Positions 13,314 through 25,070 of a stretch of DNA of 64,000 nucleotides are shown here, one piece after another; the stretch's first letter is position 1; each line of letters begins with the position of its first letter. The stretch spans positions 1,632,001-1,696,000 of the forward strand of contig OZ245817.1 of assembly GCA_965228475.1 (NCBI GenBank), read 5' to 3'. The notes below the pieces were generated by a model, which did no database searches, was not told the origin of the DNA, and worked only from the letters and a program-made list of their open reading frames with translations. This DNA is from Myxococcota bacterium. GTDB taxonomy: Bacteria; Myxococcota_A; UBA9160; JAFDDA01. The translations under genes and the position numbers were made by a program.

Positions 13314-14504
<1,191 letters not shown>

Positions 14505-14554
14505 CCACCCGAGGGTGGAACTTCGGATGGCTCGGCCATCCAGGAAAGACTGTT

Positions 14555-14872
14555 ATGGCTGACCTCGCACAGCAGAAGATCCGGATCCGGATGAAGGCGT
14601 ACGACTTCCGGCTGCTCGACCAGAGCGCGTCGGAGATCGTGGATACCGCCATCCGGACGGGCGCCCGGCTCGCCGGCCCCATTCCGCTTCCGACCACGAT
14701 CAACAAGTACACGGTCCTCCGGGGCCCGAACATCGACAAGAAGTCGCGCGAGCAGTTCGAGGTGCGCACGCACCGCCGGCTGATCGACATCCTGGAGCCG
14801 ACCCCGCAGACGGTCGACGCCCTGATGAAGCTCGAGCTCGCCGCCGGTGTCGACGTGGAGATCAAGCTCTAG
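14555..14872 (+). CDS. rpsJ: 30S ribosomal protein uS10
   Basis: [35 protein letters not shown]. Confidence 0.98.
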
Positions 14873-14874
14873 CC

Positions 14875-15528
14875 ATGGCGACCCTCGACGTGAAAACCCT
14901 CGCCGGGAAGAAGAGCGGCACCATCGACCTCGACCCCGTCGTGTTCGAGGCCACGGTGAAGCCGCACCTCTTCCACGCGGAGGTCCGAAGGCAGTTGGCG
15001 GGACGCCGTGCGGGCACCCACGCCACCAAGAATCGCTCGCGCGTTTCGGGCGGCGGTGCCAAGCCGTTCCGGCAGAAGGGCACGGGCCGCGCCCGTGCCG
15101 GTACGACGCGTGCGCCCCAGTGGACGGGCGGCGGCGTCGTGTTCGGCCCGGTGCCGCGCAGCTACGACCACAAGCTTCCGAAGAAGATGCGCCGCGCGGC
15201 CCTCCGCAGCGCCGTCTCGGCACGCGTGGCCGAGCAGGCCGTGACGGTGGTCGACGCACTCGAGCTCGAAGCGGCCAAGACCCGCGAGCTCGTGGCGAAG
15301 CTCGGCGCCCTGGACCTCGCCGAGCGCTCGGTGCTGATCGTGATCGCCGAGGCCGACGAGAAGGTCGAGCGCGCTTCCCGGAACCTGCCGAACGTCGGTG
15401 CGATTCGCGCCGACGGCCTCAACGTCTACGACGTCCTGCGCCACGAGCATCTGCTCATGACCCAGGCCGGCGCCGAGGCGGTGGCCCGGCGGCTCGGCGA
15501 CTCCGCCGAGGAAGGGGCTGCATCGTGA
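14875..15528 (+). CDS. rplD: 50S ribosomal protein uL4
   Basis: [43 protein letters not shown]. Confidence 0.97.
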
Positions 15529-15812
15529 ACGTGCATCAAGTCATTCGCCGGCCGCTCGTCACGGAGAAGAGCAGCATCGGGCGCGAGGAGCAGAACCTCG
15601 TGACCTTTGCCGTCGCTCCCGACGCGAACAAGCCGGAGATCAAGCGGGCCGTCGAGTCGCTGTTCCAGGTGAACGTGCTCGAGGTCCGGACCATGCGGAT
15701 GCCCCGCAAGTCGCGCCGGGTGGGCGCGCACATGGGGCGCAAGCCGGAGTGGAAGAAGGCGATCGTGCGGCTGGCCGAAGGCCAGGCGATCGAATTCTTC
15801 GAAGGAGTCTAG
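15525..15812 (+). CDS. rplW: 50S ribosomal protein uL23
   Basis: GTGA overlap with rplD stop; [32 protein letters not shown]. Confidence 0.96.
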
Positions 15813-15813
15813 G

Positions 15814-16644
15814 ATGGCCGTCAAGAACTACCGGCCGATGACCCCCGGACGACGGGGCATGTCCGTCTCGGACTTCGCCGAGCTGACGCGGGGCAAGCCC
15901 GAGCGCTCGCTCGTCACCGGTCTCGTGAAGAAGAGCGGCGGGCGAAACAGCAACGGGCGGATCACGGCCTGGCACCGGGGCGGCGGGCACAAGCGCCGCT
16001 ACCGAAAGATCGACTTCCGCCGCGACAAGCTCGGCGTTCCGGCCAAGGTCGCTGCCATCGAATACGACCCGAACCGGTCCGCGAACATCGCGCTGCTGCA
16101 CTATGCCGACGGCGAGAAGCGCTACATCCTCTCGCCGACGGACCTCCGCGTCGGGGACACGATCTCCTCGGGGCCGGATGCCGAGGTTCGGCCGGGCAAC
16201 GCGATCCCGATCGCCCGCATCCCGCTCGGCACCGTGCTGCACGCCATCGAGATGAAGCCCGGCAAGGGCGCCCAGCTCGTGCGGGCCGCCGGCGGCTCAG
16301 CGCAGCTCATGGCTCGCGAAGGCCGCTACGCCACGCTGCGTCTCCCGAGCGGTGAGCACCGCAAGATCCTCGTCGATTGCATGGCGACCATCGGCCAGGT
16401 CGGAAACCTGGACCACGAGAACCAGAGCATCGGCAAGGCGGGCCGCTCCCGTTGGAAGGGCAAGCGCTCGAACGTGCGCGGCGTCGCCATGAACCCGGTC
16501 GATCACCCGATGGGAGGCGGCGAGGGCCGCACTTCGGGCGGCCGCCAGCCTTGTACGCCCTGGGGCAAGCCGACCAAGGGCTACAAGACGCGCAGCAACA
16601 AGAGTTCCGATCGGTACATCGTCAAGAAGCGAGGGAAGAAGTAA
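15814..16644 (+). CDS. rplB: 50S ribosomal protein uL2
   Basis: [44 protein letters not shown]. Confidence 0.99.
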
Positions 16645-16919
16645 TGGCCCGTTCGCTCCGCAAGGGCCCGTTCGTCGAGCCGAGCCTCCAGCGCAAGGTC
16701 GACAAGCTGCAGGAATCCGGTTCGAAGCAGGTCATCCGCACCTGGTCGCGGCGCTCGATGATCGCCCCGGATTTCGTGGGACTCACGTTCCACGTGCACA
16801 ACGGGAAGCTGTTCATTCCCGTCTTCGTGACGGAGAACATGGTCGGTCATCGCCTCGGCGAGTTCTCTCCGACCCGCAAGTTCACCGGCCACGCGACGGA
16901 CAAGAAGGTCAAGGGCTGA
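16644..16919 (+). CDS. rpsS: 30S ribosomal protein uS19
   Basis: TAATG overlap; [32 protein letters not shown]. Confidence 0.97.
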
Positions 16920-17269
16920 TGGCGGCTGCGAAGGCGAGACTCAGGAACTACCGCGTCAGCACGCGCCGCGCGCGCCTGCTGGCCGACCAGATCCGCGGCA
17001 AGCAGGTCGAGGAGGCGCTCGCGCTGCTCGATCTCTCGACGCGCCGGTTCGCCCGGCCGCTCGCGAAGCTCGTGCGTTCGGCCGTGGCCAACGCGCAGGA
17101 GAGCAACGACCGCGACAAGGCCGGCATCGACGTCGACAACCTGGTCGTGAGTCAGATCAGCGTGGACGAGGGCGCCAGCATGTGGCGCATCAAGGCGCGT
17201 GCGCAGGGCCGGGCGGCCTGGATCCAGAAGCGCACGAGCCACGTGCAACTCGAGCTCGAAGAGCGTTAG
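16919..17269 (+). CDS. rplV: 50S ribosomal protein uL22
   Basis: ARLLADQIRGK, SAVANA, RAQGRA...KRTSH. Confidence 0.96.
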   Translation: MAAAKARLRNYRVSTRRARLLADQIRGKQVEEALALLDLSTRRFARPLAKLVRSAVANAQESNDRDKAGIDVDNLVVSQISVDEGASMWRIKARAQGRAAWIQKRTSHVQLELEER

Positions 17270-17278
17270 GGGCGATTC

Positions 17279-17962
<684 letters not shown>

Positions 17963-17965
17963 GCC

Positions 17966-18382
17966 ATGCTCCAACCGAAGAAGGTCAAGCACCGCAAGCA
18001 GCACAAGGGCCGCATCCGTGGAAAGGCGCTCCGTGGCAACACGATCGCCTTCGGCGAATACGGCCTGCAGACGCTCGAGGCGGGGCGCATCACGGCCCGC
18101 CAGATCGAGGCGGCCCGGATCGCGATGACCCGCCACGTGAAGCGCGGCGGGAAGGTCTGGATCCGGCTCTTCCCGGACAAGCCCGTGACGAAGAAGCCCG
18201 CCGAAACCCGGATGGGTAAGGGCAAGGGCAACCCGGAAGAGTGGGTGGCGATCGTTCGCCCCGGCAAGATGCTCTACGAGATGGAGGGTGTGCCGGTGGA
18301 TATCGCGCGCGCGGCCCTGCGCCTGGCGGCCCACAAGCTGCCCGTCGCCACCAAGATCGTGGTGCGCGAGGAGGGCGTATGA
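17966..18382 (+). CDS. rplP: 50S ribosomal protein uL16
   Basis: [30 protein letters not shown]. Confidence 0.98.
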
Positions 18383-18579
18383 AGGCGTCGGAGATTCGTG
18401 AGCTTTCCGAGGAGGAACTCGTGGCCAAGGCCGACGAGATCCGCGGTGAGCTCTTCAACCTCAAGGTGAAGCATGCCACCGGGCAGCTCGAAGACACCGC
18501 CCGGCTGGCGCACCTGCGCCGCGACGTGGCGCGGCTCGAGACGGTGGCCCGAGAGCGGCGGGAGGCGACGAAATCATGA
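18379..18579 (+). CDS. rpmC: 50S ribosomal protein uL29
   Basis: ATGA overlap; [10 protein letters not shown]...ELFNLK...TGQLE...RRDVARLET. Confidence 0.96.
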
Positions 18580-18839
18580 GCGACCGGGGGATGCGCCGGA
18601 CCCTCGTCGGGACGGTGGTCAGCGACAAGATGGACAAGACCGTGGTGGTCCGCGTCGATCGGCTGGTCAAGGACCGGACCTACAAGAAGTACGTCAACCG
18701 CTTCACGCGGTACATGGCGCACGACGAGGCGAATACGTGCGCGGTCGGAGACCGCGTCCAAATCATCGAGCACCGTCCGCTTTCGAAGAAGAAGCGGTGG
18801 AAGGTGCAGTCGACGCTGACCAAGGCCGTCGGCGTCTAG
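18576..18839 (+). CDS. rpsQ: 30S ribosomal protein uS17
   Basis: [27 protein letters not shown]. Confidence 0.97.
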
Positions 18840-18854
18840 GCGAGGGAACGGGAG

Positions 18855-19223
18855 ATGATCCAAGCAGAGTCGACGCTTCAGGTCGCCGACAACTCCGGTG
18901 CCCGCAAGCTCTCCTGCATCAAGGTGCTGGGTGGCTCGAAGCGCAAGTACGCCTCGATCGGCGACATCGTGGTCGTCTCCGTCAAGGAGGCGATCCCGAA
19001 CGCTCGCGTGAAGAAGGGTGAGGTGCGCAAGGCCGTGGTCGTGCGGACGGCGAAGGGGATCGGTCGCGCCGACGGCTCGATCATCCGCTTCGACGACAAC
19101 GCCGCTGTCCTGATCGACAACCAGCGCGAGCCCGTCGGGACGCGCATCTTCGGCCCCGTCGCTCGCGAGCTCCGTGGGCGCCGCTTCATGAAGATCATTT
19201 CGCTCGCGCCGGAGGTCCTGTGA
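18855..19223 (+). CDS. rplN: 50S ribosomal protein uL14
   Basis: [45 protein letters not shown]. Confidence 0.99.
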
Positions 19224-19765
19224 TGGTCCCCCGTCTGCTCGAACGCTACCGCGGCGACACCACCGGCAAGCTCCGCGAGGAGTTCGGCTACGCGAACCCG
19301 CACCAGGTGCCGCGCCTCGACAAGATCGTGGTGAACATGGGTCTCGGTGAGGCCGTCGCCAACCCGAAGATCATCGAGCGCGCCGTCGAGGAGCTGGCCG
19401 AGATCACGGGCCAGAAGCCCGTCGTTCGCCGCGCTCGCAAGTCGATCGCCAACTTCAAGCTCCGCCAGGGGCAGGCGATCGGGGCGTCGGTGACGCTGCG
19501 CGGCGTCCGCATGTGGGAGTTCTACGACCGCCTCGTCAGCACCGCGCTGCCGCGCGTGCGGGACTTCCAGGGCGTCTCCCCGAAGGCCTTCGACGGCCGA
19601 GGCAACTACACCCTCGGGGTTCGTGAGCAGATCATCTTCCCCGAAGTGGACTACGACAAGGTCGAGCGGATCACCGGCCTGAACGTGACGGTGTGCACGA
19701 CGGCCCGGACGGACAACGAGGCGCGGGCGCTGCTCGCCCACCTCGGAATGCCGTTCCGGAACTAG
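19223..19765 (+). CDS. rplE: 50S ribosomal protein uL5
   Basis: [38 protein letters not shown] overlap with rplN (in-frame GTG at 19220 is an alternative start). Confidence 0.97.
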
Positions 19766-19812
19766 GCCGCCGAGATCACCCGCGAGAACGACCTGCGAGA
19801 AGGAACGAAGCC

Positions 19813-20208
19813 ATGATGACCGACCCCATCTCCGACATGCTGACGCGCATCCGCAACGCGCAGCGCGCTCGCCATGCCGAGGTCCGGCTGCCCGCCTCGA
19901 AGCTGAAGCTCGCCGTCGCCCAGGTGCTCCAGGCCCAGGGCTACGTGACCGACGTCGGCCTCGACGAGACCGCGGACAAGCCCACCCTGCGCATGGGCAT
20001 GCGCTACCGCGACGACGGCCGCGAGATGATCGACGGTCTTTCCCGGATCTCGCGCCCGAGCCGCCGCGTGTACGTGGCCGCCGAGGAAGTGCCCAAGGTC
20101 CGCAACGGCCTCGGCATCGCGATCCTGTCCACCTCCCAGGGGGTGATGACCGACCAAGACGCCCGCGAGAAGAACGTGGGCGGCGAAGTGCTCTGCGAGG
20201 TCTGGTAG
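19813..20208 (+). CDS. rpsH: 30S ribosomal protein uS8
   Basis: MMTDPISDMLTRIRNA, RISRPSRRVY, GLGIAILSTSQG, GGEVLCEVW. Confidence 0.98.
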   Translation: MMTDPISDMLTRIRNAQRARHAEVRLPASKLKLAVAQVLQAQGYVTDVGLDETADKPTLRMGMRYRDDGREMIDGLSRISRPSRRVYVAAEEVPKVRNGLGIAILSTSQGVMTDQDAREKNVGGEVLCEVW

Positions 20209-20210
20209 CC

Positions 20211-20750
20211 ATGTCCCGCGTAGGAAACGCACCCATCTCCCTGCCGAAGGGAGTCGATCTGGCGCTCACCGAGGGCGAGATGCGCGTGAAGGGCCCGAAG
20301 GGGACGCTCGCGCGCCCGCTGCCGGCCGGGATCGCCCTCGACGTCAGCGACGGAACCGCGACGCTCAAGCGCCCGGACGATTCGAAGACGGCCCGCTCGA
20401 TGCACGGCCTCGCTCGCGCGCTGCTGAACAACATGGTCACGGGCGTGACCGACGGATTCACGAAGGTCCTCGAGATCCAGGGCGTCGGTTACCGCGCTGC
20501 AGCGAGCGGCAAGAACCTGAACCTCGTGCTCGGCTTCTCGCACCCGGTGGACATGCCGATTCCCGAGGGCATCAAGGTCTCCGTCGAAAACAACACCCTC
20601 ATCACCATCGAGGGGATCGACAAGGAGAAGGTCGGACAGTTCGCAGCGGACGTCCGCAAGTGGCGGCCGCCGGAGCCCTACAAGGGCAAGGGCATCCGTT
20701 ATCAGGGTGAGCAGATCCGCCGCAAGGTCGGCAAGGCAGGAGCGGCCTAA
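20211..20750 (+). CDS. rplF: 50S ribosomal protein uL6
   Basis: VKGPKG, GVGYRA, LGFSHP, RPPEPYKGKGIRY. Confidence 0.98.
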   Translation: MSRVGNAPISLPKGVDLALTEGEMRVKGPKGTLARPLPAGIALDVSDGTATLKRPDDSKTARSMHGLARALLNNMVTGVTDGFTKVLEIQGVGYRAAASGKNLNLVLGFSHPVDMPIPEGIKVSVENNTLITIEGIDKEKVGQFAADVRKWRPPEPYKGKGIRYQGEQIRRKVGKAGAA

Positions 20751-24150: not shown

Positions 24151-24939
24151 ATGGCGTACGGAAACCGCATCACGATCAAGACCCGCTCCGAGCTCGAGAA
24201 GATGCGCGAAGCGGGGCGCCACGTGGGCGAGATCCTGCTCGAGGTCCGCGAGCGGGCCCGTTCCGGCATGACCACCGGGGAGCTCAACGACCTGGCGAAG
24301 CGCTGCATCGAGCGGCGCGGCGTGGTGTCGTCCTTCCTCGACTACGCCCCGGGCGGCGCGCCGCCGTACCCGGCCGTGATCTGCATCTCCGCGAACGAGG
24401 AGATCGTCCACGGCATCCCGGGGCCGCGGGAGCTGAAGGACGGCGACCTGTTGAGCCTCGACTTCGGCATCCACGTCGACGGATTCCATGGCGACTCGGC
24501 CGTGACGATCCCGATCGGCGACATCGGCCCGGAGAGCGAGCGCCTCATCGAGGCCACGCGGGACGCCCTCTACAAGGGCATCGCGCAGATGGTCCCGGGC
24601 AACCGCCTCTCCGACATCGGCCACGCCATCCAGGAGCGTGCGGAGTCCGAGGGCTTCGGCGTGGTGCGCCAGTTCGTGGGGCACGGCATCGGCCGCCTTC
24701 TGCACGAGCCGCCGCAGATTCCGAACTACGGCAACCCGGGCAAGGGCCCGCGGCTGCGAACGGGCATGGTCTTCGCGATCGAGCCCATGGTTTGCATGGG
24801 GAGCTACGATGTCCGCATGCTCGACGACGAGTGGACCGCGGTCACCGCGGATGGCTCGCTGTCGGCCCATTTCGAACACACCATCCTGATCACCGATGAC
24901 GGCCCGGAGGTCCTGACCGCCGTGCCGGGATCGCACTGA
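24151..24939 (+). CDS. map: Methionine aminopeptidase type I
   Basis: [41 protein letters not shown]. Confidence 0.97.
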
Positions 24940-24956
24940 TCGGGAAGGGGAGAGAC

Positions 24957-25070
24957 ATGAAGGTCAGAGCCTCGGTGCGCAAGATGTGTGACAAGTGCCG
25001 GATCATCAAACGCCGCGGAGTCGTGCGCGTGATCTGCGACAACCCCAAGCACAAGCAGCGCCAGGGTTAG
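24957..25070 (+). CDS. rpmJ: 50S ribosomal protein bL36, Zn-binding form (37 aa, not in the ORF track)
   Basis: Read by hand: [37 protein letters not shown]. Confidence 0.97.

Follow-up and report, generated by a model that had tools for sequence, protein, structure and literature searches.

An S10-spc ribosomal protein gene cluster without rplC, rplX and rpsN in a Myxococcota genome, a probable inherited variant

The S10-spc cluster of ribosomal protein (r-protein) genes is among the most stable gene orders of bacteria and serves as a fixed anchor for binning, for marker phylogeny and for models of r-protein autoregulation. What, then, should be made of such a cluster when single genes are missing from its middle? 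This question is raised by a window of 64,000 nucleotides (nt), positions 1,632,001-1,696,000 (C1:1632001-1696000) of the single-contig genome of a Myxococcota bacterium. An earlier note, made from the letters of the window alone, had described its S10-spc cluster as lacking rplC (L3), rplX (L24) and rpsN (S14) without scars, and had proposed either that the three genes had been moved to separate loci or that the sequence had been misassembled or edited. The evidence presented below makes it very probable that the cluster is a natural, inherited variant, the product of three separate events.

The genes of the window were read by a Pfam scan of the plus-strand frames, which gave the order S10-L4-L23-L2-S19-L22-S3-L16-L29-S17-L14-L5-S8-L6-L18-S5-L30-L15-SecY, all on the plus strand (L2, for instance, at 15814-16644). 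Both flanks are canonical, with L1-L10-L7/L12-rpoB-rpoC-S12-S7-EF-G-EF-Tu upstream and Adk-Map-L36-S13-S11-S4-RpoA-L17 downstream, the neighbouring rplKAJL-rpoBC-str and alpha operons being in place. The gene content departs from that of a canonical S10-spc-alpha cluster in the absence of rplC, rplX and rpsN, as the earlier note had stated, and the remaining genes stand in canonical order from L1 to L17.

We then read the sequence of the three junctions directly. At the usual place of rplC, rpsJ (S10; 14555..14872; PF00338, E value 1.1e-34) ends with the stop codon TAG at 14870-14872 and is separated by a 2-nt spacer from the ATG at 14875 of rplD (L4; 14875..15528; PF00573, E value 6.6e-69), so that the junction covers 14870..14877; a GGAG lies about 12 nt 5' of this ATG. 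At the usual place of rplX, the stop codon TGA (19221-19223) of rplN (L14; 18855..19223; PF00238, E value 2.6e-55) overlaps the start of rplE (L5; 19223..19765; PF00281 and PF00673), which is either the GTG at 19220 or the ATG at 19223 (junction 19220..19225). Finally, the usual place of rpsN is taken by a spacer of 47 nt (19766..19812) between the stop codon of rplE (19763-19765) and the ATG at 19813 of rpsH (S8; 19813..20208; PF00410, E value 6.4e-49), and this spacer holds no S14-like reading frame or remnant. An L3 gene would need about 640 nt, an L24 gene about 325 nt and an S14 gene at least 186 nt, and none of the three fits its junction. The scarless absence of L3, L24 and S14 from the cluster is confirmed by both the Pfam scan and the junction sequences.

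Where are these genes in the genome? The earlier note had suggested a search of the whole genome with hidden Markov models, together with an inspection of the neighbourhoods found. The genome has 5,006,157 bases in one contig (70.5% G+C, no N), with a completeness estimate of 96.14%. Each of the three proteins gave exactly one match in it, and all three matches lie outside the cluster and outside the window, in line with the statement that no copy is left elsewhere in the 64 kb. L3 was found at C1:4951140-4951406 (about 4.951 Mb), again as a single match with the bacterial L3 model L3_bact TIGR03625, on which it scored 246 bits (NCBIfam equivalog cut-off, 142.9). L24 was found at C1:1403215-1403403 (about 1.403 Mb) and scored 94.3 bits on rplX_bact TIGR01079 (cut-off, 53.7). 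Similarly, S14 was found at C1:159703-159858 (about 0.160 Mb) and scored 133.5 bits on the long-S14 model PRK08881/NF006477 (cut-off, 77). All three equivalog cut-offs were therefore passed.

According to Pfam, a divergent type I phosphodiesterase gene precedes L3, and the gene after L3 encodes an FtsJ-family methyltransferase. This protein scored 152.1 bits on Pfam FtsJ, against a threshold of 24.1, and 168.5 bits on TIGR00438, the model of the 23S rRNA U2552 methyltransferase RlmE, which is below the equivalog cut-off of 300.15; by its sequence it resembles RlmE and is classed here at the level of the FtsJ family. L24 lies between a divergent glucose/sorbosone-dehydrogenase-like (GSDH-like) gene and, downstream, a ferredoxin gene. 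S14 is flanked by genes for an AAA ATPase and a DsbA-like protein.

To place these findings among relatives, L16 was sought in 150 further genomes of the phylum that were at least 85% complete (147 of 151 genomes with a match), and the cluster regions of 80 genomes were fetched, 20 of them from the same order, 4 from a sister family and the remaining 56 spread over about 36 further family codes. These 80 were picked for family spread and usable contig context. As a control for tblastn, 80 loci obtained from the public genome collection with the L3 protein as query were read in the same way: 73 of them belong to other phyla and have the order S10-L3-L4, and in the majority of the longer loci L14-L24-L5-S14-S8 is present too. 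In one fetched region of a phylum member (L155, G142:C6), the cluster is seen only from L22 on, and S10 to S19 do not lie upstream.

Could the three genes have been dropped from the record by an assembly error or by editing, while being in the cluster in reality? Three gene-exact removals look unusual, and the completeness estimate is below 100%, both of which would suit such an artefact. However, the window is identical to C1:1632001-1696000 of the genome and free of N, and all three genes are present once elsewhere with scores above the equivalog cut-offs. Furthermore, when public sequencing runs were searched with positions 14400-20300 of the window, three of them (X1, X2 and X3) held at least 91% of the sampled words, and their contigs run over all three junctions with 0 differences and 0 gaps. 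The S10/L4 junction is crossed by X1 record 4, X2 record 14 and X3 record 18, and the L14/L5 junction is crossed without gaps by X1 record 8, X2 record 16, X3 record 23 and X4 record 32. The last of these, from a marine metagenome, spans both L14/L5 and L5/S8 with 9 differences and 0 gaps. X1 and X3 belong to the same coded study, and the source sample may be among them; X2 comes from a second study and X4 from a third. Stronger evidence against an artefact than these contigs is the comparison with relatives: independent assemblies from the same order share the S10/L4 and L14/L5 junctions in 20 of 20 cases and the L5/S8 junction in 16 of 20. The identity of window and genome, the public-run contigs and the same-order genomes lead us to reject misassembly or editing, the probability of which we regard as negligible. 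The earlier note had also considered that the arrangement might be a trait of a whole clade; as to the trait, this is what the 20 genomes of the order display at S10/L4 and L14/L5.

The departure of L3 is the most widespread of the three. L3 was found between S10 and L4 in none of the 20 genomes of the order, in none of the 4 of the sister family and in 5 of the 56 other genomes of the phylum (families f18, f23, f27 and f30). In 50 of these 56, L4 follows S10 within 325 nt, and in 1 the cluster is broken before L22. Across 40 same-order genomes representing 12 family codes, L3 and L4 are never adjacent, the two genes being separated by more than 1 Mb or placed on different contigs (L3 matched in 39 and L4 in 37 of 41 genomes, counting that of the window). 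L3 is present somewhere in 149 of the 151 sampled genomes of the phylum; few have more than one match, the additional ones being partial pieces, and none has two full copies. Of the 80 L3-query loci, the 7 closest carry L3 without S10 or L4. Five of these 7 belong to metagenome-assembled genomes (MAGs) with 62-65% identity, four labelled "Deltaproteobacteria bacterium" and one Opitutales, and in all five L3 is followed by an RlmE-like gene. The "Deltaproteobacteria bacterium" records are filed under Myxococcota by an NCBI look-up. An RlmE-like gene follows L3 in 6 of 6 loci of the order and in 16 of 40 loci of the phylum. The contig labelled "uncultured Opitutales bacterium" (L009), which carries the L3-RlmE pair, falls inside the L3 clade of the order (Shimodaira-Hasegawa-like approximate likelihood ratio test [SH-aLRT], 98), and its label or bin may be wrong.

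The departure of L24 is confined more narrowly. L24 is absent between L14 and L5 in all 20 genomes of the order, the gap being at most 12 nt in 19 of them and 125 nt in one, and it is in the cluster in 4 of 4 genomes of the sister family. The other 56 genomes of the phylum have L14-L5 gaps of at least 325 nt, except for a single one of 162 nt. The sole genome of the order with the 125-nt spacer is L099 (G032:C51), and this spacer may be a remnant. Counted over the order, L24 lies away from the cluster in 37 of 41 genomes. Its new locus is conserved as well: a ferredoxin gene lies downstream in 22 of 30 loci and a dehydrogenase-like gene upstream in most of them. In a tree of 102 rows, the L24 sequences of the order form one clade (30 rows; SH-aLRT, 99), which branches from within the cluster-encoded L24 sequences of this phylum and has no outgroup row inside. 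This is the pattern that a single move of a native gene in the ancestor of the order would give.

S14 differs from the other two. The S14 of the window genome has 101 amino acids (aa) and 2 cysteines, and its best model is PRK08881 and not the type Z model. In the order, the L5-S8 gap measures 213-237 nt, with the gene kept, in 4 of the 20 fetched clusters and 13-50 nt in the other 16; elsewhere in the phylum, 8 of 56 clusters have no S14 in this gap (28-127 nt). S14 genes outside the cluster encode 101 aa with 1 or 2 cysteines (28 of 28 in the order and 20 of 20 in the phylum), and those inside it encode about 54-62 aa with 4 cysteines, the starts of the latter being approximate. Exactly one S14 match was found in 38 of 41 genomes of the order and in 147 of 151 of the phylum, and two in none. 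Furthermore, no sampled genome was seen with both a cluster copy and an outside copy of L3, L24 or S14. Long and short S14 forms are split in the tree (SH-aLRT, 90), and the long forms of the order make up one clade (28 rows; SH-aLRT, 97). These sequence data indicate that S14 was replaced and not moved, the short four-cysteine cluster gene and the long outside gene being mutually exclusive. The AAA/S14/DsbA neighbourhood does not extend beyond the family of the window genome, recurring in 2 of 29 other loci. Within the order, the long S14 forms of family f7 (L197, L198 and L221) nest within those of f10 (L206, L208, L212 and L213; SH-aLRT, 84-94), and the f7 genome G016 keeps the short cluster gene; the nesting may reflect a transfer of the long form within the order.

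Both L3 and L24 are preceded by conserved promoter-like boxes. Upstream of L3, a sigma-70-type match, TCGACA-17-TATATT, lies about 100 nt before the GTG start and agrees at 10 of 12 positions (0.1 expected from shuffles), and both boxes align, as TCGACA-17-CTATATT-like elements, in 6 of 6 loci of the order. Upstream of L24, a TTGAC(G/T) box about 55-65 nt before the start was recognized from the alignment alone in about 24 of 30 loci of the order; a promoter consensus scan gave no match at the L24 and S14 loci. Separate transcription of L3 and L24 from the predicted boxes is likely, and the three outside genes would be expressed at ribosomal levels. Codon adaptation was uninformative as a proxy for expression, the reference genes of the cluster (0.62-0.81) themselves lying near or under the background median of 0.77. 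No conserved leader structure was found before L3 (RNAalifold consensus of 6 sequences, -1.6 kcal/mol), no Rfam family reached its gathering score in the window, and none was found at the three outside loci, where the sole weak match was to an unrelated small RNA model (E value, 0.37). In comparison with five relatives, the L3 leader of the window genome (L001, about 1125-1185) has gained some 50 nt by an insertion, which lies between the boxes and the GTG start and holds two short inverted repeats.

In our preferred account, the natural variant would have arisen as follows. rplC would have left the cluster long ago, being outside it in nearly all sampled genomes of the phylum, and in the order it would now form a small unit with the gene for an FtsJ/RlmE-like, putative 23S rRNA methyltransferase behind its own sigma-70-type promoter. 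rplX would have left in the ancestor of the order and have been kept since between the GSDH-like and ferredoxin genes, with a promoter-like box of its own. As for rpsN, the short zinc-ribbon (four-cysteine, type Z) gene would have been lost from the cluster, so that S14 is now supplied solely by the long 101-aa form elsewhere. With each loss, the genes on either side would have closed up to a few bases or to overlapping stop and start codons, which would fit kept translational coupling and would explain why no scars are seen. We infer this order of events, and also the route, namely that a duplication or an insertion elsewhere came first and the copy in the cluster was then deleted. With regard to an origin by duplication or transfer and subsequent loss of the cluster copy, L24 nests among the cluster-encoded L24 of the phylum, the L3 tree is without resolution and no two-copy genome was seen. 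The proposal of the earlier note that the genes were moved to separate loci thus applies to L3 and L24, each of which is present elsewhere as one full-length copy preceded by conserved promoter-like boxes of its own, but not to S14, whose cluster gene was lost and in whose stead a long form of 101 aa with 2 cysteines is found.

Several points weigh against this account. The order, family and phylum on which the counts rest are group codes of the genome collection, and presence or absence was scored by tblastn with the proteins of this genome and by gap lengths rather than by gene calls; tblastn missed L24 in 4 loci, 3 of which have gaps large enough to hold it. No RNA run was among the public runs found with the window sequence. 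In the L3 tree, the genes outside the cluster group at an SH-aLRT of only 85, with one Actinomycetota row inside, and the L3 that families f23, f27 and f30 encode in the cluster instead joins a Desulfuromonadales row (SH-aLRT, 96); this tree does not decide between relocation and replacement. Additionally, L3 is missing from the cluster in part of a second phylum, to which a Bacteriovorax MAG belongs: of 30 sampled loci (L290-L319), 21 keep it and 9 do not. The exit of L3 is therefore either older, repeated or transferred.

These same data give room to a different history of L3, in which an acquired or old paralogous line of L3 outside the cluster ousted the cluster copy, possibly repeatedly across the two phyla, much as for S14. 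In two MAGs of the second phylum, labelled Bdellovibrionales and Bacteriovorax stolpii, S10 stands directly before L4 and L3 lies elsewhere, and in the L3 trees these two outside genes are nearest to, and group with, those of the window's phylum; this grouping, the position of the cluster-encoded L3 of f23, f27 and f30 and the mixed state of the second phylum speak for such a xenologous displacement. The Desulfuromonadales control cluster itself is canonical. However, an approximately unbiased (AU) test does not reject a placement of the outside L3 genes of the second phylum with that phylum's own cluster-encoded L3 (p-AU, 0.248), the group of outside genes is the one that has modest branch support and an outgroup row within it, and it may just be that families in which L3 is still in the cluster are early branches. 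Moreover, two full copies of L3 were not encountered in any sampled genome. We therefore consider displacement rather unlikely for L3. In the Bacteriovorax stolpii MAG, the outside L3 is followed by an RNA pseudouridine synthase gene (L013, 8708-9433; PF00849), another rRNA or tRNA modification enzyme next to L3.

Another possibility, first raised in the earlier note, concerns not the route but the reason. In Escherichia coli reconstitution, 50S assembly is initiated by two proteins, L3 and L24, and both could have been selected for promoters of their own, so that 50S assembly would be paced apart from bulk r-protein synthesis and L3 would be coexpressed with an enzyme that modifies 23S rRNA. 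The large-subunit genes that departed are exactly L3 and L24 out of the 14 in a canonical S10-spc cluster, a pair that random choice would give 1 time in 91. They left at different times, both have conserved promoter-like boxes, and L3 has the FtsJ/RlmE-like gene behind it in 6 of 6 loci of the order and 16 of 40 of the phylum, with the pseudouridine synthase gene taking this position in the Bacteriovorax MAG. The arithmetic is post hoc, however, and the coincidence was noted after the data had been seen. In addition, neither a conserved structure in the L3 leader nor an Rfam match at the three loci was found, the neighbours of L3 are unrelated in 24 of 40 loci of the phylum, and that of L24 is a ferredoxin gene. 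Such an adaptive uncoupling seems to us quite improbable. Equally speculative is its extended form, according to which the two starters of 50S assembly would have left the coupled cluster in two steps, their own promoters would pace assembly, for example during slow growth or development, and the pair of L3 and methyltransferase genes would be a mini-operon acting as an "assembly start" module.

The loss of one gene from a conserved operon chain, with the chain intact and a copy elsewhere on the chromosome, is a known kind of event, as set out in the main text of Brandis 2021 (PMC8046335). The cluster described here agrees with this, in that single genes are removed with the chain intact (junctions of 2 nt, an overlap and 47 nt) and copies that pass equivalog cut-offs lie elsewhere. 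In Leuconostocaceae, according to the same text, rpsN is missing from spc and a long isoform is encoded outside the operon, which is the pattern seen here for S14. The route proposed there, either a pre-existing homologue or duplication followed by deletion of the cluster copy, fits the present case. However, the cases in that text are from Gammaproteobacteria and Bacilli, and the words rplC and rplX do not occur in it; here, unlike in those cases, L3 and L24 have left, the departures have become fixed as deep as a phylum and an order, and three losses affect one cluster. We found no paper on rplC or rplX outside the cluster in these groups in the full-text literature, subscription journals not being covered.

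To our knowledge, L3 and L24 have no paralogue families. S14, on the other hand, exists in zinc (C+) and non-zinc (C-) forms that are subject to lateral transfer (Brochier et al. and Makarova et al., as summarized in PMC3087516). The S14 genes described here match this division, the form in spc being short, with four cysteines, and the one elsewhere long and lacking these four, and their distribution is patchy and off the species tree, as that summary reports for C+ and C- forms. In Bacillus, Streptomyces and Mycobacterium, the textbook examples, both forms are present together, the C- copy being switched on under zinc shortage. In contrast to those genera, none of the 147 phylum genomes and none of the 38 order genomes in which S14 was matched gave two matches (no search was aimed at Zur sites). 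Since no genome holds both forms, the long S14 is predicted to be constitutive and the only S14.

In practical terms, rplC is absent from the S10 operon of a phylum-level group and spc lacks rplX throughout an order, and the positions of the two genes provide cheap, discrete gene-order markers for these clades. A pipeline in which gaps of this kind count as errors would misjudge this cluster. The arrangement also offers a natural experiment on stoichiometric r-protein synthesis, in which two assembly initiators do without cotranscription and translational coupling.

Two further observations concern the wider surroundings. The interval (24936-24960) that separates map (24151-24936) from rpmJ (L36, about 24957-25067) lacks infA, although this is its place in many bacteria. 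As to the position of the loci on the chromosome, the cumulative GC skew has its minimum at about 4.83 Mb and its maximum at about 2.34 Mb, and dnaA lies at 4.62 Mb. Judged by this skew, the r-protein cluster (1.65 Mb) is about 1.8 Mb from the origin and closer to the terminus, and L3 (4.95 Mb) and S14 lie about 0.12 Mb and about 0.34 Mb, respectively, from the skew minimum.

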